DNA from: a virus
Reading direction: 5' to 3' (one strand)
IMG/VR virus record: IMGVR_UViG_3300045988_043402
DNA length: 11,654 bases
The position numbers and the translations under genes were made by a program. Positions 14-11,654 of this stretch are shown here, piece after piece. The notes beneath the pieces are model-generated. The model made no database searches, was not told where the DNA came from, and worked only from the letters and a program-made list of their open reading frames with translations. Numbering within the stretch: position 1 is the first letter of the stretch; each line of letters starts with the position of its first letter.

Positions 14-78
14 AAAGGTACACAAGGCACGTAGATTTAACATTTCCCAACGCATATTTAACCGTTGTTAACACACTT

Positions 79-94
79 TGGCACGCTTTTTGCC
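79..94 (+). promoter_or_regulatory. Sigma54-like -24/-12 element (TGGCACG-N4-TTGC) overlapping a TGGCAC/GTGCCA inverted repeat (79..84 / 96..101)
   Basis: TGGCACGCTTTTTGCC has GG and GC separated by 10 nt, as in the RpoN consensus TGGCAC-N5-TTGC. It points inward. It could instead be a protein-binding palindrome. Confidence 0.3.
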
Positions 95-183
95 TGTGCC
101 ACAATTACGATTATTTAACACTTTTAACACATCGTAACAAAGTTAATTTTTCTTAAACTTTGCTATCGCCCTGTTAACAAAAA

Positions 184-265
184 TGTTTCACGTGGAACGG
201 TGGCAAAGTGATTGTTTCACGTGGAACAAATGAGGGTAATGAACAAAAATGTTTCACGTGGAACA
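184..265 (+). promoter_or_regulatory. Three copies of a near-palindromic 15-16 bp site TGTTTCACGTGGAAC(A), operator-like
   Basis: Exact copies lie at 184..198, 213..228 and 250..265. TGTTnCACGTGnAACA is palindromic at 14 of 16 positions, which suggests a dimeric DNA-binding protein site. Confidence 0.6.
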
Positions 266-319
266 AATAAGTGTTAACAACAGTTAATTTTATTCTTTAA
301 GACTTTTTAACTAAAATAA

Positions 320-351
320 TTTGGTGGTTTCGCAAAATCGTTGTATCTTTG
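320..351 (+). promoter_or_regulatory. Bacteroidota-type promoter (-33 TTTG, -7 TAtcTTTG) at the inner edge of the left ITR
   Basis: TTTG at 320..323 and TATCTTTG at 344..351 are separated by exactly 20 nt. This matches the Bacteroides primary sigma consensus TTTG / TAnnTTTG. It drives the plus-strand genes. Confidence 0.7.
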
Positions 352-353
352 CA

Positions 354-678: not shown

Positions 679-1104
679 ATGAAAAGAATTAAGTATTTCA
701 GTTTAGCAGAATTTATTCATTCTACAACCGCCAAACGTTTAAACATTGACAATACGCCAACGTTTGAAATAGTTGATAACTTGAATCGTTTGGCTGATTA
801 TTTGGATAACATTCGTGAAAAGTTGGGCAAACCAATTTTAGTTAATAGTGGCTATCGTTGCCCCGTGTTAAACAAAGCCGTTGGTGGTGTGGCTAACAGT
901 CAACACCAAAAAGGTTTAGCGGCTGATTTGGTTTGCGCTGATATGACAAAACTTGAATCGGTGTTAAGAGAAACAGGCGGTTTTGACCAACTTATTAAAG
1001 AACACCGCAAAGGTTTCCCGAACTCATTTTGGTTTCACGTTTCAGTTTGCCAACGTAACGGCAAACCCCGTAACCAAATTATAATGAATTTGGAAAAGAA
1101 ATAG
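679..1104 (+). CDS. Endolysin, peptidase M15 (zinc D-Ala-D-Ala carboxypeptidase / L-Ala-D-Glu peptidase fold)
   Basis: Carries SGYRCPVLN, SQHQKGLAAD and WFHVS, the SxHxxGxAxD...H zinc-ligand pattern of M15 phage lysins. It is a single domain of 141 aa with no cell-wall-binding domain, as is typical for Gram-negative hosts. Confidence 0.85.
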   Translation: MKRIKYFSLAEFIHSTTAKRLNIDNTPTFEIVDNLNRLADYLDNIREKLGKPILVNSGYRCPVLNKAVGGVANSQHQKGLAADLVCADMTKLESVLRETGGFDQLIKEHRKGFPNSFWFHVSVCQRNGKPRNQIIMNLEKK

Positions 1105-3442: not shown

Positions 3443-4627
3443 TTAGGCTATAAAGAACACTACAAAGTTTTCGTTTGTGTCGTTGAAGTAGCCCGCATCG
3501 AATTTATAATAATTGTTGAAAAATTCTGCTTTGGCGTTGTAGTTGGTTGTTACTCGCTTATCCAAGTTTGTAACACCCAAAGCGTCACGGTCAAACATCA
3601 CACCCAACACGCCACTTATAGAAACCGTTGCACCGCTTGCAGATTTTACATCTATCTTTGAAACGTTGGCAAAAGCGTAATCTTTGCCCGTTGCTTGCCA
3701 ACTTGCCACGGTTTCAGCCTGTGGTAATAATACGTTTTCATTGTGGAACGTATCGGCATACAGATAAGTTTTTGCGGCAGCTGCAAAGTCACTCAACAAA
3801 ACGGCGTGTAACACGTCCTTTGGTGTGAAACGTTCTTTTCCACCCACGTTAAACAGGGTTGAAATGGTCTGCAAACGGTCTGAGTACAAACCCATAATAT
3901 ACGCTGCAAAGCGGATAAAATCGGGTGTGGTAATTGCCGTATCTACTGTAATCTGTGCACCTGTTTTTTCTTTGTAAAGTTTCAACAGGTTGACACAACG
4001 AACAGTTGATGCACTTGAATAATCTACTGTTCCTTGTGTTGATGCATCGAAGCCGAAAGCTTTTTTGTCAGCGTCCAAAGTTTCTGCAATCATATTGTTA
4101 ATTGTACGCATAATAAGCGCATCGGTCTTAATAGTCATTGACTTTTCAACAGCGTTGTAAATCATTGACAGAAAACCGTTCAACTGTTCCGCACTGCTGA
4201 AAGATTCTTTAACCTGTCTTTCTGTGATAGATACGGGAACTTCAAAAGTTACCTTTGAGTTAAAGAATTTAGCGGAAACAGTCGGTTTGTGAAATACGTC
4301 CTGTTTGTACTCTTTGCCGTCCTGTAAGTTCCACGTGTCATTCTCTTCAGCATTTGGAACGTCAGCGGAAATCTTTTCCAATACCGAACCAAATTCCCAC
4401 GCATCCATAAGAACGGACGGAACTTTACCCGAATAAGGACGGTTAACAAACACTACTTTACCGATATGGTTAACCAACGATTTAACGTAATTATCAACGG
4501 CATTCTGATTAAACACCTCATTACCCAAATCGACAATACCTGTAAGGTCTTCTTTAACCAAATCGCTTTTGCCTAATACTTCATCTGAAACGCTATTAAT
4601 AAGCGTGTAAATCTGTTTTACTTCCAT
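3443..4627 (-). CDS. Major capsid protein, phi29 gp8-like (HK97 fold)
   Basis: 394 aa. DNYVKSLVNHIGKVVF and LNGFLSMIYNAVEKS resemble, from memory, the phi29 gp8 segments NDFITSLVDRIGLVV and FESFVSSIINAIYNSAE. It lies downstream of the portal and is followed by its own terminator. Confidence 0.8.
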   Translation of the reverse strand: MEVKQIYTLINSVSDEVLGKSDLVKEDLTGIVDLGNEVFNQNAVDNYVKSLVNHIGKVVFVNRPYSGKVPSVLMDAWEFGSVLEKISADVPNAEENDTWNLQDGKEYKQDVFHKPTVSAKFFNSKVTFEVPVSITERQVKESFSSAEQLNGFLSMIYNAVEKSMTIKTDALIMRTINNMIAETLDADKKAFGFDASTQGTVDYSSASTVRCVNLLKLYKEKTGAQITVDTAITTPDFIRFAAYIMGLYSDRLQTISTLFNVGGKERFTPKDVLHAVLLSDFAAAAKTYLYADTFHNENVLLPQAETVASWQATGKDYAFANVSKIDVKSASGATVSISGVLGVMFDRDALGVTNLDKRVTTNYNAKAEFFNNYYKFDAGYFNDTNENFVVFFIA

Positions 4628-4645: not shown

Positions 4646-5215
4646 TTAATAAATATCTATTGTTAACTCTTTTGCAAGTTCTGCAATAACTTGCGTTTTA
4701 AAATTTGTTCTTCTAAGAATCATTTCTTTTTGAACAATTTCACTAACAGGAACACCATTCGGCAAACTGTTCTTAACAGTTGTTTTCGTGCCCGTTTCTT
4801 GTCGGTTTCCTGTGGAATCTCTTTGCTGCTTTGTGTCATTTCCGAAATCTCCATTATTAAATGTTACACTTGAATCGACCGTGTTATTATTGCCTGTTTC
4901 ATCAACGGTGTTATTTGTTGTTTCCGTCAACTTTTCAGTAACAGGGTTTAACGGGTCATATTCGTTATTAAACACTTGAATCTGTTTTTGCCATTCGTCA
5001 AACTTCACCGTGATAATGCTTTTAACAATATCGCTTGCAGTTTCGGGCGTAACGGCATTTACTAGCGTTCTGTTTCCATATTTGAAACGAAAATCAATAT
5101 CAATTAAAACGGGGTCATCTTCATTAAATATTGATTTGTACAAAACAGGAAACAGGGGTTTAAAGATTTTTTCAAACAAACCATTTTCACCCGTGAAAAG
5201 TTCATTAATTTTCAT
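4646..5215 (-). CDS. Hypothetical structural protein, 189 aa (scaffold or head-tail adaptor candidate)
   Basis: Lies between the portal and capsid genes, the usual scaffold position. It has a central N/T/D/G-rich low-complexity segment. Its start overlaps the portal stop by 11 nt. Confidence 0.4.
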   Translation of the reverse strand: MKINELFTGENGLFEKIFKPLFPVLYKSIFNEDDPVLIDIDFRFKYGNRTLVNAVTPETASDIVKSIITVKFDEWQKQIQVFNNEYDPLNPVTEKLTETTNNTVDETGNNNTVDSSVTFNNGDFGNDTKQQRDSTGNRQETGTKTTVKNSLPNGVPVSEIVQKEMILRRTNFKTQVIAELAKELTIDIY

Positions 5216-6242
5216 CTTTGTTTTCTTTTTCTTCTGTTTCCGTTTCTGTTTCTTCTGTTTCTTGCGTTTCTTCTGTTTCTGTTTCCGTTTCTTCTGTTTC
5301 TTGCGTTTCTTCTGTTTCGTTTTCGTTTACGGGGTCAACGTCTTCTGTGTCGGTGTGTTCGTGCCTGTCTTCTGTGGCTTTGAGTAACGATAAATAGTTT
5401 TCGTGCTCAATTTTCCAACTTGAACCCAACGTTACGGCTATTTCCGTACCAAACATTTCGTTAACACGTTTAACGCCCTCAACACGTTCATTTAACATTG
5501 AATCAACAAACGGCATTAAAGCGTCTATATTCATCGAAACTTCTTGCGTGTTCAAACGTTCACGTTTCATATTATAATTTGCGTTCAAACCCAAATCGTT
5601 AAACAGTGACGCTTTGTAGTACTGCAAAAGTTCAATCATTTGCGTTATCTGTTGGTTACTTTGCGTTGGCGGTGTTTGCATATTTACACCTTTGAAAAAC
5701 GCATTTTCACCAACAACCGAGAAATCACCGTCCAGAATCTTTTGCAGAAACGATTCTGCACTTTGTTTGGTCTTATCATCACTAGCAGAAATAAGCATTG
5801 TTATTCTAGTTAAAATGCTAGTCATATTCAACGTTATAACTGCATCGGTGTAAAGTACGCCGTATTTTCCGATAATTGGCAAAATTGAATCTGCAAACGG
5901 TGTGTTGTTGATAACTACAATATTATCACCGATTTTGAAAGTTTTATCCAACTTTAACCACGGGTTTGCGACAACGAAATCTTTGCCCCAATAATACGCA
6001 TCACATTCGCCACCACGTGAACCCTGTAAGGCGTACAAATCACCGTTAACTTTGGCGATTCCAACATTACCGCTAGTTTGCAGAATCTTTTCAAGTTCTA
6101 CAGGTGGCATTGTTTCGGGCGTTCCTGTATATTCAAACATTTTTGAAGTCATGCAAAGAACACGTTGCATAAAAGTATTTAATGCAGAATCTTTGTTTTT
6201 AACTTCTGTTTGATACAGGTTATATAAATTTTCTTTCTTCAT
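5205..6242 (-). CDS. Portal (connector) protein, phi29 gp10-like
   Basis: FEYTGTPETMPPVELEKIL, NIVVINNTPFADS and FNDLGLNANYNMKRERLNTQEVSMN parallel, from memory, phi29 gp10 FEWENLPPTINPSFLEKSI, VVIYNNDMAFPT and [24 protein letters not shown]. At 345 aa the size is comparable. Confidence 0.85.
   Translation of the reverse strand: MKKENLYNLYQTEVKNKDSALNTFMQRVLCMTSKMFEYTGTPETMPPVELEKILQTSGNVGIAKVNGDLYALQGSRGGECDAYYWGKDFVVANPWLKLDKTFKIGDNIVVINNTPFADSILPIIGKYGVLYTDAVITLNMTSILTRITMLISASDDKTKQSAESFLQKILDGDFSVVGENAFFKGVNMQTPPTQSNQQITQMIELLQYYKASLFNDLGLNANYNMKRERLNTQEVSMNIDALMPFVDSMLNERVEGVKRVNEMFGTEIAVTLGSSWKIEHENYLSLLKATEDRHEHTDTEDVDPVNENETEETQETEETETETEETQETEETETETEEKENKDEN
5229..5318 (-). repeat. 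39-nt tandem repeat (2.3 copies) encoding the Glu/Thr-rich C-terminal tail of the portal
   Basis: Units 5280..5318 and 5241..5279 are identical at 37 of 39 nt. A 12-nt partial unit lies at 5229..5240. Each unit encodes ETEETQETEETET. Confidence 0.9.
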
Positions 6243-6436
6243 TACTTGATAAGCGTTTTAATTAACGTACAAAGTTCTGTTAACACTTTCGTGTTACTTT
6301 GTACTGTTTCGTTTAACTTGTCGGTTTCGTTTTGGTGGCGTTCGTTCTGTTTCTCCATATAGAAGAAAAGGGCGATACAAACCGAAACAGGAAAACCAAC
6401 GTTACTAATTAAAGATACGATTCCGTTTAAATCCAT
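6242..6436 (-). CDS. Small single-pass membrane protein, 64 aa (holin candidate, YvrJ-like N-terminus)
   Basis: One hydrophobic helix (IVSLISNVGFPVSVCIALFFYM) is followed by a charged helical tail. It is the first gene after the central promoter, and its stop overlaps the portal start (TAATG). Confidence 0.5.
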   Translation of the reverse strand: MDLNGIVSLISNVGFPVSVCIALFFYMEKQNERHQNETDKLNETVQSNTKVLTELCTLIKTLIK

Positions 6437-6468: not shown

Positions 6469-6500
6469 CAAAGATAGTATTATTTTCTGAAAACACCAAA
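6469..6500 (-). promoter_or_regulatory. Bacteroidota-type promoter for the structural operon
   Basis: The minus strand reads TTTG (6500..6497), then 20 nt, then TATCTTTG (6476..6469). The extended TATCTTTGCAAC is identical to the left ITR promoter. Confidence 0.7.
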
Positions 6501-6547
6501 TAAAACGGGGGAAAATGCTTCACATGAAACACTTTTTATCCCCGTTT
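6501..6547 (-). terminator. Terminator ending the replication/packaging operon
   Basis: The minus strand reads AAACGGGG ... CCCCGTTT (6547..6540 pairing with 6510..6503), with an internally pairing loop, followed by TATTTGG. It starts 9 nt after the ATPase stop. Confidence 0.6.
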
Positions 6548-6555
6548 AACAGATT

Positions 6556-7695
6556 TTAAGTAATAATGTTACTTCTAGCACTTGCCATTAAATAATTTCT
6601 TACAATTTCCCCAATTTCGTTATTTTGATAAAATACCTTATCGGTGGCGAAATACTTTGTTATCTGTGATTCCAGATAACTTGCAGTACTCAACAACTTG
6701 CGTTTATAATTCGGTTTGCCGTTCATTTGCAGCGAATAAATTAAACTGTTGTCTGTGTCTTTTATCGGGGTTGTTTTGTTATGGATATAAACAAAGTTGT
6801 TAACCCCTGTTTCTTCGTCTTCTACCTGTATAACGTTGCCCTGTAAGGTCATTTCATTAAACTGAATATAGAAGACAAATAACACATCATTCGGGCGATA
6901 TTTAACAGGCAAATGCGGATAAACTGCAAGTTCCCATTTACCGCCCGTAATCATCTGCAAATTTTGATTGTCGAAACAGAAATATTTGTTACTGGCTTTC
7001 TGTTTAACAATCGTGCTGCAATATTCTACTGCAACCGTTGCCCCGTGTTCACCGAATTTATAAATATCTATTGTTCCCTGTTCCATTACTCGCACTTGTT
7101 TCAATCCCATTTCGGTAAAATACGGGCAAAACTGATTTACCGTGTTACCCAACATAAAAACTTTAACATCATTTCTTTGTCGAATAATCGTGCTTAACAG
7201 GTTCATATATAACATAAATTCATCGGGCAAATAATAACGTCTTGTCAAGAATTCATCAAATACAATCGTGGTTATATTCGGGTAACTACTACTTTTTTCG
7301 TGTTCCTGTTCTGAAAGACAAAACCCGAAACAAAACGGCACGTTGTCGGGTACACGTTTTTTGGTTTCGGGGTCATAAGACGAAAGAAACCATTTACCCG
7401 ATATATAAAACACTTCGTTAAACTTGCCGTTTGTTAATTCTTGAATCAAACCGTTTGCAACGTGATTTGAAAATAAACTTTCGGCACGTTTGCCCCTTAA
7501 ATCTTCACGCCAACGTCTAATATACGCCATTTGTTTACCCGTCTTCAAATATTCTTTGATTCCATACAACAACGTGGCGTATGTTTTACCGTTGGAACGT
7601 TCACCGAATATTACGTTATAATCGGCATTCTTTGCCAAAATTCGTGAAAGACTGTAAAACTTTGGCGTTTCTACTTTTTCTTTCTTCTGTTTCAT
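6556..7695 (-). CDS. DNA encapsidation ATPase, phi29 gp16-like
   Basis: Walker A is FGERSNGKTYA and Walker B is YPNITTIVFDEF. These, together with KQMAYIRRW and LGNTVNQFCPYF, parallel, from memory, phi29 gp16 IGARGIGKSYA, YPNVSTIVFDEF, EQFIYVRRY and LSNAVSVVNPYF. Confidence 0.9.
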   Translation of the reverse strand: MKQKKEKVETPKFYSLSRILAKNADYNVIFGERSNGKTYATLLYGIKEYLKTGKQMAYIRRWREDLRGKRAESLFSNHVANGLIQELTNGKFNEVFYISGKWFLSSYDPETKKRVPDNVPFCFGFCLSEQEHEKSSSYPNITTIVFDEFLTRRYYLPDEFMLYMNLLSTIIRQRNDVKVFMLGNTVNQFCPYFTEMGLKQVRVMEQGTIDIYKFGEHGATVAVEYCSTIVKQKASNKYFCFDNQNLQMITGGKWELAVYPHLPVKYRPNDVLFVFYIQFNEMTLQGNVIQVEDEETGVNNFVYIHNKTTPIKDTDNSLIYSLQMNGKPNYKRKLLSTASYLESQITKYFATDKVFYQNNEIGEIVRNYLMASARSNIIT

Positions 7696-7696
7696 A

Positions 7697-9907
7697 TTAT
7701 TCTTTCTTTAATCTGATACCCATTAAATAATTTATATAAAGAACTGAAAGACTTAAAGTGTACCCTGTTGGTTCTAAGTGTACGCCCGTTTTCGTGTCGT
7801 AACTTGAAACCGTGCCTAAATAGTCTTTTATCGTTCCCGTCTGCTCGTAATCTACATACGTATGTATGTTTTTACCTGTTGCCGCTGGCGGTATATCTAA
7901 ATAGTTCGTGAAAGCGTCAAAGATTCCGTTTTCCCCGTATGTTTCCAACATATACGGGATAGCAGATTTTTTGTTAACGCCCGATACCGTCAAACTGAAA
8001 TCGTAACTTTTCCCGTCAACTGTTAGGGCGTTTTCTTCTTGTACCATATAACGTTTTGCGCCCAAAGTTTTAAAGCGTGTGTAGCGTCCCTCGTAATCCC
8101 AAACGCCCAAAGGTTTTGCTATTCCCTTAATTGTTACGGGTTCAACCTTTTCAAACGGTATTTTGTGGAATCTACAGGCTGCACGTAGTTTTTGTTGTGC
8201 TAAATCGTTGTACGCTTTGAAATATACTTTGTGTTCGTCACCATTCATTATTTTAACAGAATCGGTATCACTATAAATGTAATCGTCACCACATTCAGAA
8301 ATACCCGTGAATAAATTTCTTCGCGCGTAGGCGGTAACATAAATACCCCACGGGTAAAACAAGAAACGATTTTTACTATCGTTGTATTTGTTCAACATTT
8401 CCAACTGTTTTTCGCCTGTAAGGTGTTCCACGTCCCACGATTCACCATCACACAAAATTTCATCACGCAACGGGTTTGTAACACACATACCGTAACAGGA
8501 ATTAAGCATTTCTTTTGAATTTAAATATTCTACTTCTTTTCCTTTTACGCCTTTTAGTTTCGTTTTCATTTCGTACAAATGCAGAATCGAATTAATAAAT
8601 TCCGTTGGCAAATATTCTTTGCGATAACAAATCATTCGCCCGATTCTTATTTGTTCCCACGTGTAAAACTGTGAAAAAACCCTGTAATCTATTTCGGTAA
8701 TAGTCATACAAATTTTCTTTGCACAAACCAAACGCCCGTTATTTTCTGAAACGTTTTCTTTTACGAAACACTTACTAACAGAAATTGGGTTTTCGTTTTC
8801 TGATTTGGCGAAAATGTTAGTAATTTCAACGTCAAACACGCAACAGTATTTTGAAATCATAAATTCAAACTGTTTCATTGACTTAACAGGAACTACTACG
8901 CCCGTACTCATTGGGAACTTCTCGGATACCATAACATACGGGTAACTGCTAGTAAAATCGTACGAATCAACGTCCGTTATTACTTCGTCCGTGTACTTTG
9001 CATTTGCGTGCGTGAAACCTCCCGAAAACGCCCTTTGTAACATTTCAAATTCTTCAATACCCGTTATGTTTAAGTTATGAATTTTATCCAAATACTTAAA
9101 GTTTGGTACGGTTTTTCCTGTTTCGGGATCTGTTGTCTTGAAACATACAGAACGGCAATATTTGCGCACAAAACCCGTTTTTGTAATCGGTAAACGTGTT
9201 ATTCCTTTGTACTGCTCGATTAATTCCTGTATATAGCACATTACCACTTTTATATCATTCAAACAGTAACCAACTTCTTTCGGGGTCAACGGGGTTAAAC
9301 TGTGACGCAACAGGCTATAATCTAAATCACCCACTAACTTTGTACATTTGTATGTGTGAAGTTGTTCGCCCAATTTCGCCAACGAATAACCCGACAATAA
9401 ATAACTGCAACGGAACTCTAAACCGCTTTTTGTTATTCCGTAAATTGGCTTGCGTAGGTCTATTGAAAAAACCTTTTCCCATTTCAACAGTTCTCGAAAA
9501 AATTGGAACTCGTACGCCAAATTGTGAACGTATATAATAATACGTTTCTTTGGGCAAAGTTCTAACAGGGTGCAAATATCATCAAGCATTTTCAAAAATT
9601 CGTCCCACGTGCGCCCCATTATGCAGAAACCATTGATTCCAAATTGCCAAACATACATTAAAGAACACTTTTCCATTTTGGTTTCTTTTCCACCTAATTT
9701 TATATAACGTTCATAACTGTATGTTTCCCCGTTTACGTCCCTGTAAAAAGACGTTGTTTCAATATCGAAAGATACAGGCACGTTTAAGAACTTTTCGCCC
9801 TTATTATTGCCTGTAAAATTCTTTTCGTTCACCGCCAAAGAAAGAACTTTTGCAATATCTTTCGGGGTGTAAATTTCGTTATGTAGTTCAAAGGGAATCT
9901 TTTTCAT
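7697..9907 (-). CDS. Protein-primed family B DNA polymerase
   Basis: Exo I is FDIETTS, Exo II is HNLAYEFQF and Exo III is YCLNDIKV. Motif A is DFTSSYPYV, motif B is KEMLNSCYG and motif C is YSDTDS, and a KxY motif (GAKRY) is present. The genome has ITRs and encodes no primase or helicase. Confidence 0.95.
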   Translation of the reverse strand: MKKIPFELHNEIYTPKDIAKVLSLAVNEKNFTGNNKGEKFLNVPVSFDIETTSFYRDVNGETYSYERYIKLGGKETKMEKCSLMYVWQFGINGFCIMGRTWDEFLKMLDDICTLLELCPKKRIIIYVHNLAYEFQFFRELLKWEKVFSIDLRKPIYGITKSGLEFRCSYLLSGYSLAKLGEQLHTYKCTKLVGDLDYSLLRHSLTPLTPKEVGYCLNDIKVVMCYIQELIEQYKGITRLPITKTGFVRKYCRSVCFKTTDPETGKTVPNFKYLDKIHNLNITGIEEFEMLQRAFSGGFTHANAKYTDEVITDVDSYDFTSSYPYVMVSEKFPMSTGVVVPVKSMKQFEFMISKYCCVFDVEITNIFAKSENENPISVSKCFVKENVSENNGRLVCAKKICMTITEIDYRVFSQFYTWEQIRIGRMICYRKEYLPTEFINSILHLYEMKTKLKGVKGKEVEYLNSKEMLNSCYGMCVTNPLRDEILCDGESWDVEHLTGEKQLEMLNKYNDSKNRFLFYPWGIYVTAYARRNLFTGISECGDDYIYSDTDSVKIMNGDEHKVYFKAYNDLAQQKLRAACRFHKIPFEKVEPVTIKGIAKPLGVWDYEGRYTRFKTLGAKRYMVQEENALTVDGKSYDFSLTVSGVNKKSAIPYMLETYGENGIFDAFTNYLDIPPAATGKNIHTYVDYEQTGTIKDYLGTVSSYDTKTGVHLEPTGYTLSLSVLYINYLMGIRLKKE

Positions 9908-10578
9908 TATAAACCGAATTTTTCAAATTCTGATAGAATCTTTTTCAACGGTGCATCATCATTAAAATGGTCAACACCATTTACAAACGCTTCTGATGTT
10001 GGCGAACTTGAAATTTGTTCCATTGCGTCATCTAAGGCGTTTTCAATTTTAATTGCGTCATCTTCGATTTGGTCTGATACGTCCCGTGATTCCTGTTCAA
10101 GTTCACCCGTGAAATCTTTGTACTGCATCAAATAGTTTTCTAAGAAACGGGTATCTGAAACGCTTGCGATTTTACCTATCAATTTATCTTGCATCAATTT
10201 AAACTCTTTATCGTTCAAATCATAAGAGTTTTTTAAATGGTTTGCATATTCACGTGTACCACTTGCAGTTGATGTTGGTTGTTGCAAGAAAGAAACCGCT
10301 TTGGCGTACTCAATCTTTAAATCGTTCCAATCATGTTTCATTGAAAATTTTGTAAATCCTTTTATGTCACCTTTGTTTAATGCAACAACTGCGGGCGAAA
10401 TGATTCCCGAATTTTCAACGTTTTGAATGCGTCTGTTTGCCTGTTGAAACACACGGGCGATTTCTCTACGCAAATATCCACGTGATTCAATAGCGTTTAA
10501 AATTTGCATATCAACGTGTATTTTGCCCGTTGCTGCAAATGTCCTTTTAGAAAAACCTATAGGGTTCAATTTTGCCAT
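9907..10578 (-). CDS. Putative terminal protein, 223 aa
   Basis: Lies immediately upstream of the polymerase and overlaps it by 1 nt (TAATG), matching the phi29 gene 3 - gene 2 synteny. The N-terminal half is basic and the C-terminal half strongly acidic, as in the phi29 terminal protein priming domain. I recognise no sequence motif. Confidence 0.5.
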   Translation of the reverse strand: MAKLNPIGFSKRTFAATGKIHVDMQILNAIESRGYLRREIARVFQQANRRIQNVENSGIISPAVVALNKGDIKGFTKFSMKHDWNDLKIEYAKAVSFLQQPTSTASGTREYANHLKNSYDLNDKEFKLMQDKLIGKIASVSDTRFLENYLMQYKDFTGELEQESRDVSDQIEDDAIKIENALDDAMEQISSSPTSEAFVNGVDHFNDDAPLKKILSEFEKFGL

Positions 10579-11255: not shown

Positions 11256-11303
11256 AATTACCTAATTTAAATTGTTAAACTTATTTGTTTCTTAAACACG
11301 GTG

Positions 11304-11335
11304 CAAAGATACAACGATTTTGCGAAACCACCAAA
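11304..11335 (-). promoter_or_regulatory. Identical Bacteroidota-type promoter at the inner edge of the right ITR
   Basis: Reverse complement of 320..351. It points into the minus-strand replication operon. Confidence 0.7.
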
Positions 11336-11389
11336 TTATTTTAGTTAAAAAGTCTTAAAGAATAAAATTAACTGTTGTTAACACTTATT

Positions 11390-11471
11390 TGTTCCACGTG
11401 AAACATTTTTGTTCATTACCCTCATTTGTTCCACGTGAAACAATCACTTTGCCACCGTTCCACGTGAAACA
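11390..11471 (-). promoter_or_regulatory. Mirror set of the three operator-like palindromes in the right ITR
   Basis: TGTTCCACGTGAAACA copies within the right ITR are the reverse complement of 184..265. Confidence 0.6.
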
Positions 11472-11560
11472 TTTTTGTTAACAGGGCGATAGCAAAGTTT
11501 AAGAAAAATTAACTTTGTTACGATGTGTTAAAAGTGTTAAATAATCGTAATTGTGGCACA

Positions 11561-11576
11561 GGCAAAAAGCGTGCCA
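11561..11576 (-). promoter_or_regulatory. Mirror copy of the sigma54-like element in the right ITR
   Basis: GGCAAAAAGCGTGCCA is the reverse complement of 79..94. Confidence 0.3.
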
Positions 11577-11641
11577 AAGTGTGTTAACAACGGTTAAATA
11601 TGCGTTGGGAAATGTTAAATCTACGTGCCTTGTGTACCTTT

Positions 11642-11654
11642 AGATCGGAAGAGC
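11642..11654. other. Illumina adapter remnant, not biological
   Basis: Exact AGATCGGAAGAGC at the 3' end of the window. Confidence 0.95.

Follow-up and report, generated by a model that had tools for sequence, protein, structure and literature searches.

Seven sites in the genome studied here, three in each inverted terminal repeat (ITR) and one at the early/late junction, are, judged by their sequence, canonical chromosomal parS sequences, and we consider it probable that the phage uses them to recruit the ParB of its inferred host, coupling its DNA to the segregation and positioning machinery of that host. The window, i.e., the whole stretch of 11,654 nucleotides that was analyzed, is the complete linear genome of a phi29-like, protein-primed podovirus, for which Pfam recognizes a type B_2 DNA polymerase (PolB; PF03175), a Gp16 packaging ATPase (PF05894), a phi29-type major capsid protein (PF25622) and a connector (PF05352). 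The phage, of 11.6 kb, is integrase-less and apparently virulent. A megablast of the whole window against GenBank phages gave no match, relatives being detected at the protein level only, and an exact-protein look-up of PolB returned no identical record; the closest cultured relatives are the Astrithrvirus phages of Enterobacteria, which have 46% PolB identity and share the gene order.

The two genome ends form a 353-nt identical inverted repeat. At both ends (1-13 and 11642-11654) an Illumina adapter tail, GCTCTTCCGATCT, is present, and in many relatives adapter sequence is likewise followed by AAAGGTAC, so that the adapter-genome junction can be used here, and in many of the relatives, as a marker of physical DNA ends. 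Since the outermost 13 nt are adapter, the phage ITR measures approximately 340 nt and the physical end AAAGGTACAC is at position 14. The terminus AAAGGTA resembles the AAAGTA of phi29. The positions of genes, repeats, parS sites and transcription signals are listed in Table 1.

Table 1. Genes, terminal repeats, parS sites and transcription signals located in the window.
Feature	Position	Strand	Basis or remark
Left ITR proper	14..353		Physical end AAAGGTACAC
Left ITR parS copy 1, TGTTTCACGTGGAACG	184..199		15/16 to TGTTNCACGTGAAACA
Left ITR parS copy 2, TGTTTCACGTGGAACA	213..228		16/16 to TGTTNCACGTGAAACA
Left ITR parS copy 3, TGTTTCACGTGGAACA	250..265		16/16 to TGTTNCACGTGAAACA
Bacteroidota-type promoter within left ITR, drives genes 470-1355	320..351	+	Pattern match
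M15 peptidase	679-1104	+	Pfam
phi29-type major capsid protein	3443-4627	-	Pfam
phi29-type connector	5205-6242	-	Pfam
Structural-operon promoter, Bacteroidota-type, TTTG-N20-TATCTTTG	6469..6500	-	Pattern match
Early-operon terminator hairpin, parS at apex, then U tract	6503..6547	-	RNA fold -21 kcal/mol, z = -4.1
Mid-genome parS, degenerate TGCTTCACATGAAACA	6516..6531		14/16 to consensus
Gp16 packaging ATPase	6556-7695	-	Pfam
Type-B_2 DNA polymerase (PolB)	7697-9907	-	Pfam
Right ITR proper	11302..11641		Inverted-repeat match of ends
Right-ITR copy of promoter, drives early operon (55 aa, 121 aa, 223 aa, PolB, ATPase)	11304..11335	-	Pattern match
Right ITR parS, mirror of copy 3	11390..11405		+ strand reads TGTTCCACGTGAAACA, 16/16
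Right ITR parS, mirror of copy 2	11427..11442		16/16
Right ITR parS, mirror of copy 1	11456..11471		15/16

A first-pass annotation of this DNA had reported a palindromic motif, with 14 of 16 positions symmetric, three times per ITR and had suggested a dimeric protein as its binder. The exact 15-mer TGTTTCACGTGGAAC is indeed found at 184-198, 213-227 and 250-264 and is mirrored in the right ITR at 11391-11405, 11428-11442 and 11457-11471; at up to three mismatches, about 0.7 matches to it would be expected by chance. As 16-mers, copies 2 and 3 (TGTTTCACGTGGAACA) show the 14/16 palindromicity, and copy 1 ends in G. The complement of the ITR site reads TGTTCCACGTGAAACA, which agrees at 16/16 with TGTTNCACGTGAAACA, the consensus of chromosomal parS. 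Agreement with this consensus is 16/16 for four ITR copies, 15/16 for the other two, and 14/16 for the junction copy of the window. The lone asymmetric base pair, which limits the palindrome to 14/16, sits on the N of the consensus. The chance of a single perfect parS in 12 kb is approximately 1e-5. Table 1 of PMC7022226 gives TGTTNCACGTGAAACA as the chromosomal parS consensus, the ParB/Spo0J site in most bacterial phyla. The expectation of a dimeric binding protein agrees with the apparent identity of the motif, parS being the site of a ParB dimer.

Other repeated elements accompany the sites in the ITR. TTAACA occurs nine times per ITR (37-279 and mirror) and 49 times genome-wide, versus 23.6 expected, and the palindromes TGTTAACA at 172-179 and 272-279, which correspond to the outer arms of parS without the core, flank the array. 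Further outward, TGGCACGCTTTTTGC at 79-93 (+) and 11562-11576 (-) faces inward and fits the sigma-54 -24/-12 consensus (TGGCAC-N5-TTGC). This sigma-54-like element is present at 98 of 98 complete genome ends from clades A, B and C and L111 (defined below), the same genomes having four internal matches; it is better conserved than the parS sites and could be a promoter or origin element.

Among the IMG/VR relatives, of which at least 569 stretches were confirmed, we distinguish clade A (PolB at least 89% identical), clade B (79%), clade C (68%) and the single genome L111 (65%). The clade-A consensus, derived from 309 terminal instances in 80 relatives, is TGTTTCACGTG[G/A]AAC[A/G]; save for the consensus N and the last base, conservation of the site positions is 96-100%, compared with 35-76% for the flanks. 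All 76 complete clade-A ends hold one to three sites of at least 15/16, with a spacing of 26-29 or 35-39 bp and an orientation relative to the genome end that is fixed in the clade; the terminus and the first site are 133-219 nt apart, and the last site is 90-127 nt upstream of the -7 box. Helical phasing between the sites was considered and rejected, these spacings not being multiples of a helical turn. In clade C, which has a GC content of 44% and a diverged ITR, each ITR contains two perfect sites 42 bp apart and the junction site is absent, and L111 has a pair of perfect sites, separated by 25 bp, in an intergenic gap; they occur solely near the early end, at a distance of 726-751 nt. The 16-mer is thus conserved in preference to its flanks, and the site is retained in clades with 65-68% PolB identity and diverged ITRs.

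Clade B departs from this pattern: parS is absent from its ITR, three direct repeats of GCATAAATATRCGC occur in its place, and its junction site is the doubly changed yet palindromic TGTTCCACGTGGAACA. Comparison of the ITRs of related phages, the check that had been put forward with the original observation, was the appropriate test. In two clade-B genomes the three GCATAAATATRCGC repeats are accompanied by a CACGCACG-rich stretch (L219:140-190 and L220:165-215) within an ITR of 400-417 nt, and these repeats may be a swapped-in alternative binding-site module. Some relatives carry the core variants CATGTG, CACGCG and CATATG, which may bind ParB poorly. Thus, parS is recurrent and strongly maintained, but modular, with no one position being indispensable, and this makes it less likely that the sites are essential for replication initiation or packaging. 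An essential origin role is also at odds with clade B, which lacks the ITR sites, and with L111, which carries them at one end.

The fourth site, previously described as a related sequence in the terminator/promoter junction, belongs to the same family and does lie between the terminator of the ATPase gene and the structural-operon promoter, although its coordinates are 6516-6531 and not 6517-6532. In clade-A relatives it matches the consensus at 15/16 or better in 80 of 90 cases and is a perfect 16/16 palindrome in 61 of 90. It also serves as the upper part of the stem in the terminator hairpin of the early operon, which begins 9 nt past the stop codon of the ATPase gene and has the structure GGGG(G)-AAAAA-parS-TTTT-CCCC(C), in the window AAACGGGG...CCCCGUUUUAUUU. 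A GC-clamped stem-loop followed by a U tract is the form of an intrinsic terminator, and this architecture is kept in 80 relatives. The pattern TTTG-N18-21-TAnnTTTG has exactly three matches in the window, all on the correct strand and one upstream of each of the three operons; the spacer is N20 in all three promoters. Upstream of the structural-operon promoter, about 23 bp separate the centre of the junction parS from the -33 TTTG box, a distance that is fixed in all 80 relatives; upstream of the left-ITR promoter, the closest parS is about 55 bp away from the -33 box. Another strong hairpin, a bidirectional terminator of 14 bp with T tracts on both strands, occurs at 1357-1390, where it separates the structural operon from the convergent genes of the lysis side.

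The first-pass annotation had also proposed that the CACGTG core is enriched genome-wide. The 13 copies are present, in number and position as reported, against 3.56 +/- 1.8 in dinucleotide shuffles. However, six of the 13 are the ITR sites, i.e., three independent copies, which leaves a weak genome-wide enrichment, and CACGTG ranks only fourth of the 64 six-base palindromes. The seven copies in coding sequence exceed the 2.7 expected by synonymous-codon shuffling (P = 0.004) more clearly than the approximately 3.3 expected by Markov models (Poisson P about 0.05). They match the full site at 12/16 at most, the unique region contains no more matches of 12/16 or better than chance would give (7 versus 6.0), and the coding copies are kept in only 27-88% of close relatives; the possibility that they represent weak ParB sites was rejected on these grounds. 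Across the relatives, CACGTG outside parS averages 4.4 versus 2.8 expected in clade A, 0 versus 2.3 in clade B and 3.6 versus 2.1-3.5 in clade C, an excess that differs from clade to clade. In L017, L019, L026, L032, L049 and others, two extra CACGTG cores, 21 bp apart, are located approximately 375-415 nt from the lysis-side end; they lie beyond the ITR and are not full GTTTCACGTGRAAC sites. A different, non-parS context of the core, CGGTACACGTGTAAAA, is found near the genome ends of some relatives.

Searches of Pfam and PHROGs with every ORF of the window gave no match to ParB, to HTH proteins or to any other DNA-binding protein. The 55-aa early protein is modeled with confidence as a helical hairpin, for which no significant match was found in the PDB, and the single-sequence model of the 121-aa early protein is unreliable (pLDDT 45). 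Homologues of every window protein are present in clade B, which is devoid of ITR sites, and no phage protein co-varies with the presence of these sites. Since the window encodes no ParB-like protein, the ParB of the host is the most likely binder.

The Shine-Dalgarno motif is found before none of the 14 genes. Promoters of the TTTG/TAnnTTTG type and a missing Shine-Dalgarno motif are hallmarks of the Bacteroidota, and together they point to a host that looks like a non-sporulating member of this phylum. In a 2024 review, a related phage assembled from a fecal metagenome is entered as 'Bacteroidales (suggested)'. Homologues of ParABS, together with sites of the parS consensus, are reported for all twelve OMM12 gut bacteria, including Bacteroides caecimuris and Muribaculum intestinale (PMC10197239). 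A contig scan with one genome per species recovered relatives only in two MAG bins and in no isolate, and provided no support for stable carriage; the labels of the MAGs, Melainabacteria and Clostridia, were set aside as unreliable for host assignment.

The parS of phi29 was reportedly described by Meijer et al. in 2005 in connection with spore entrapment that depends on the Spo0J/ParB of the host. Both phi29 and the phage studied here are protein-primed podoviruses with several copies of a host-type parS (here seven) and without a ParB gene, and the window, like phi29, contains no partition genes. Our scan of reference phages revealed four copies of the identical 16-mer TGTTTCACGTGGAACA in phi29, at 10445, 15903, 17243 and 18760, and two perfect parS sites in Nf. 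PMC2731898 speaks of five parS sites in phi29 and of an involvement of host Spo0J in the segregation of its genome into the prespore. The phi29 site at 17243-17258 starts directly after the stop codon of gene 16, which encodes the ATPase, and before terminator TD1, and the site at 6516-6531 likewise follows the Gp16-type ATPase gene. At the place equivalent to phi29 17243-17258, Nf has a degenerate site of 13/16. However, the sites of phi29 are scattered over the right half of the genome, mostly in genes, and its ITR is only 6 bp, whereas here two to three sites with a spacing of 26-42 bp occur per 340-nt ITR, in addition to one in a terminator stem.

The likeness extends to the centromeres of chromosomes and plasmids. 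Chromosomal parS/ParB centromeres have the same consensus and are clustered next to replication origins, which in this phage are the genome ends; they differ in that the sites described here are on a virus without parA and parB and have a tandem spacing of tens of base pairs, not kilobases. The partition sites of F (sopC, with 43-bp repeats), P1 and N15 are tandem 16-bp inverted repeats on small extrachromosomal replicons. The phage sites are similarly short tandem 16-bp inverted repeats, and the 42-bp spacing in clade C is reminiscent of sopC; in contrast, plasmids and plasmid-prophages have their own ParA and ParB and private sites, whereas this phage has the universal host site and neither protein.

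Among the other reference phages scanned, GA-1, Salmonella phage Astrid, Acinetobacter phage Phanie and Vibrio phage K58 g2 have no parS, and Astrid contains no CACGTG whatsoever. To our knowledge, the host family of Astrid, which represents the group of closest cultured relatives, lacks a chromosomal ParABS, in line with a site that serves host ParB. The hosts of Phanie and K58 g2, however, do have ParABS, and since these two phages nevertheless lack the site, carriage of parS is, on the sequences compared, an optional trait. A perfect parS, with the identical 16-mer, is also present in the human-fecal phage MT836125 (PolB 33%), and L107, a distant phi29-like genome (PolB 21%), has two perfect sites, at 5573 and 10998. 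An exact-match scan of IMG/VR found the same 16-18-mer in multiple copies in unrelated contigs, one of them of high GC content, and the site is, therefore, not a phage-specific operator; only multi-copy contigs were counted, single exact 15-mer matches being, by estimate, about as numerous as chance predicts for a collection of this size.

We propose that, after injection, dimers of the host ParB (Spo0J family) would bind the seven parS sites, load as CTP-dependent clamps and then spread, so that partition complexes would form on both ends and in the middle of the linear genome, which is capped by terminal proteins. Phage DNA would thereby be coupled to the ParA/ParB segregation and positioning machinery of the host. 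ParB clamps slide off free DNA ends, which speaks against this proposal unless the terminal-protein cap, here 130-250 bp from the sites, would retain them. To the best of our knowledge, Bacteroidota do not sporulate, and with a non-sporulating host of this kind the purpose would have to differ from the prespore entrapment of phi29; most likely the sites would ensure that phage genomes which are dormant, or which develop slowly, are faithfully inherited or positioned in dividing cells, i.e., a carrier state. A side effect on the three promoters, each of which lies downstream of a parS, is possible. We would go only tentatively as far as a phage that persists as a segregating linear episome by means of a ParABS borrowed through the arrays in its ITRs, with the parS in the terminator enabling ParB to sense copy number and to gate late expression.

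The sites may also be parS that bind host ParB, with transcription as their main task, nucleation and spreading of ParB serving to dampen or time phage genes; the structural-operon promoter, for example, might be kept low until the pool of ParB has been titrated by replicated genomes, a mechanism that would act as a copy-number timer. Spreading of ParB-family proteins such as P1 ParB and KorB silences adjacent genes, a precedent that favors this option. Every parS group is, moreover, upstream of a consensus promoter, with the ITR arrays at the 90-127 nt from the -7 box given above and a junction site whose distance of about 23 bp to the -33 box is constant in 80 relatives, and the three near-identical host-type promoters come with no recognizable phage regulator to order them in time. 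However, clade C without the junction site and clade B without the ITR sites have the same promoters, the ITR sites are remote from the promoters, at about -100 to -170 and a variable distance, and the sites of phi29 are mostly intragenic. We consider a mainly transcriptional function unlikely, and clearly less probable than the coupling of phage DNA to host segregation. Quite improbable, in our view, is a role as decoys, by which hundreds of genomes with seven parS each would titrate ParB from the origin region and, to the benefit of the phage, disturb host chromosome segregation, SMC loading or replication control. Perfect sites that are dense on a multicopy replicon and conserved across clades would suit such decoys, but at high copy number one or two sites would suffice and the conserved placement at ends and junction is left unexplained. 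Moreover, in Table 1 of PMC7022226 the loss of parB is mild in many bacteria.

Slightly less probable still is that the palindromes are operators or origin-organizing sites of a phage-encoded, dimeric small early protein comparable to p4 or p6 of phi29. This agrees with palindromic sites arrayed near replication origins and promoters, where the p4/p6 sites of phi29 are also located (near genome ends and at the early/late promoter junction), with several small early proteins without known function, and with the predicted helical hairpin of 55 aa, which could dimerize. However, the 16-mer is the universal host parS and is unchanged in phi29, Nf, L107 and L155, which have differing early proteins, the proteins of the window have neither a DNA-binding domain nor a fold match, and clade B combines the same protein set with an ITR that lacks the sites. 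The p4 and p6 proteins are phage-encoded, with a different or no sequence specificity, and no homologue or analogous DNA-binding protein was detected here. Binding of p6 is not sequence-specific, whereas the present sites are sequence-specific and irregularly spaced at 26-29 or 35-39 bp, unlike a p6-type complex. Of the functions suggested by the first-pass annotation, operators of a phage regulator are thus not supported, given the missing DNA-binding domain (Pfam/PHROG) and a site that is neither private to the lineage nor co-varying with a phage protein, and origin organizers of the p6/p4 type are contradicted by clade B (no ITR sites) and L111 (sites at approximately 730 nt, at one end); enhancers bound by small early proteins find no support in a 16-mer that is, to all appearance, the canonical chromosomal parS.

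The least probable option is that the palindromes act as nucleic-acid structures, i.e., as hairpins in an inward ITR RNA or in the ssDNA displaced during protein-primed replication: the junction copy truly is the apex of a terminator hairpin, pairing between neighboring palindromes gives the RNA of 170-280 a strong fold (-36 kcal/mol, z = -5.4), the fixed orientation yields a U-G wobble and not a C-A mismatch on the inward-reading strand, and a sigma-54-like promoter element is upstream, but the constraint is on the exact sequence rather than on pairing (the ITR sites hardly vary, and compensatory substitutions were not observed among them), that sequence is precisely parS, which no structure requires, an Rfam search detected no RNA family, pRNA included, and the ITR sites are upstream of recognizable promoters.

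The site family itself and a phi29-family phage that carries host parS were already known. Our literature search gave nothing relevant on phage hijack of host ParB or on parS-linked pseudolysogeny, and, to the best of our knowledge, the exploitation of sporulation by phi29 is the sole documented use of host parS by a virulent phage. What is new is the occurrence in a huge family of Bacteroidota-type phages; the arrangement as tandem arrays within long ITRs, together with a copy built into a terminator beside the late promoter; and the implication that the strategy serves something besides spore entrapment. This suggests that small protein-primed phages more generally hijack host ParB as a strategy for persistence or positioning. 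It would provide a concrete mechanism for the inheritance of lytic-looking phages in dividing cells, which bears on the coexistence of phages and hosts in the gut, and a natural system for the behavior of ParB-CTP clamps on short linear DNA capped by terminal proteins. We recommend that these sites are annotated as parS and not as novel operators.

On the tentative reading of a borrowed ParABS, the use of a host centromere would appear to be repeated among several phi29-like lineages that are unrelated, as well as in other phages (L155 and L094). L155, a 116-kb viral contig of high GC content, has 12 copies of ATGTTTCACGTGGAACAT within 5 kb (8900-13892), in short intergenic gaps just upstream of the ribosome-binding sites of minus-strand genes and with an HU-like gene nearby. 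In the 77-kb contig L094, three perfect parS are found at 6638-6895 in the vicinity of a Bacteroidota-like promoter, and two of the three directly adjoin each other head to tail. In the stretches examined with Pfam, ParB was absent among the neighbors of the parS clusters of L094 and L155. L081 has two perfect parS, at 6246 and 7226, beside tRNA genes.

Two further features of the window were noted. Between 354 and 11301, TTCGAA is missing, versus 5.9 copies expected from a first-order and 3.4 from a third-order model, as is CAATTG, versus 5.6 (first-order) and 2.7 (third-order); this may reflect restriction-site avoidance, for which the statistics are weak. At 5215-5334, where the connector gene overlaps the gene of a 189-aa protein, imperfect tandem repeats of approximately 9-21 nt and of the TCTGTTTC type occur, which presumably represent a repetitive acidic coding stretch on the minus strand.
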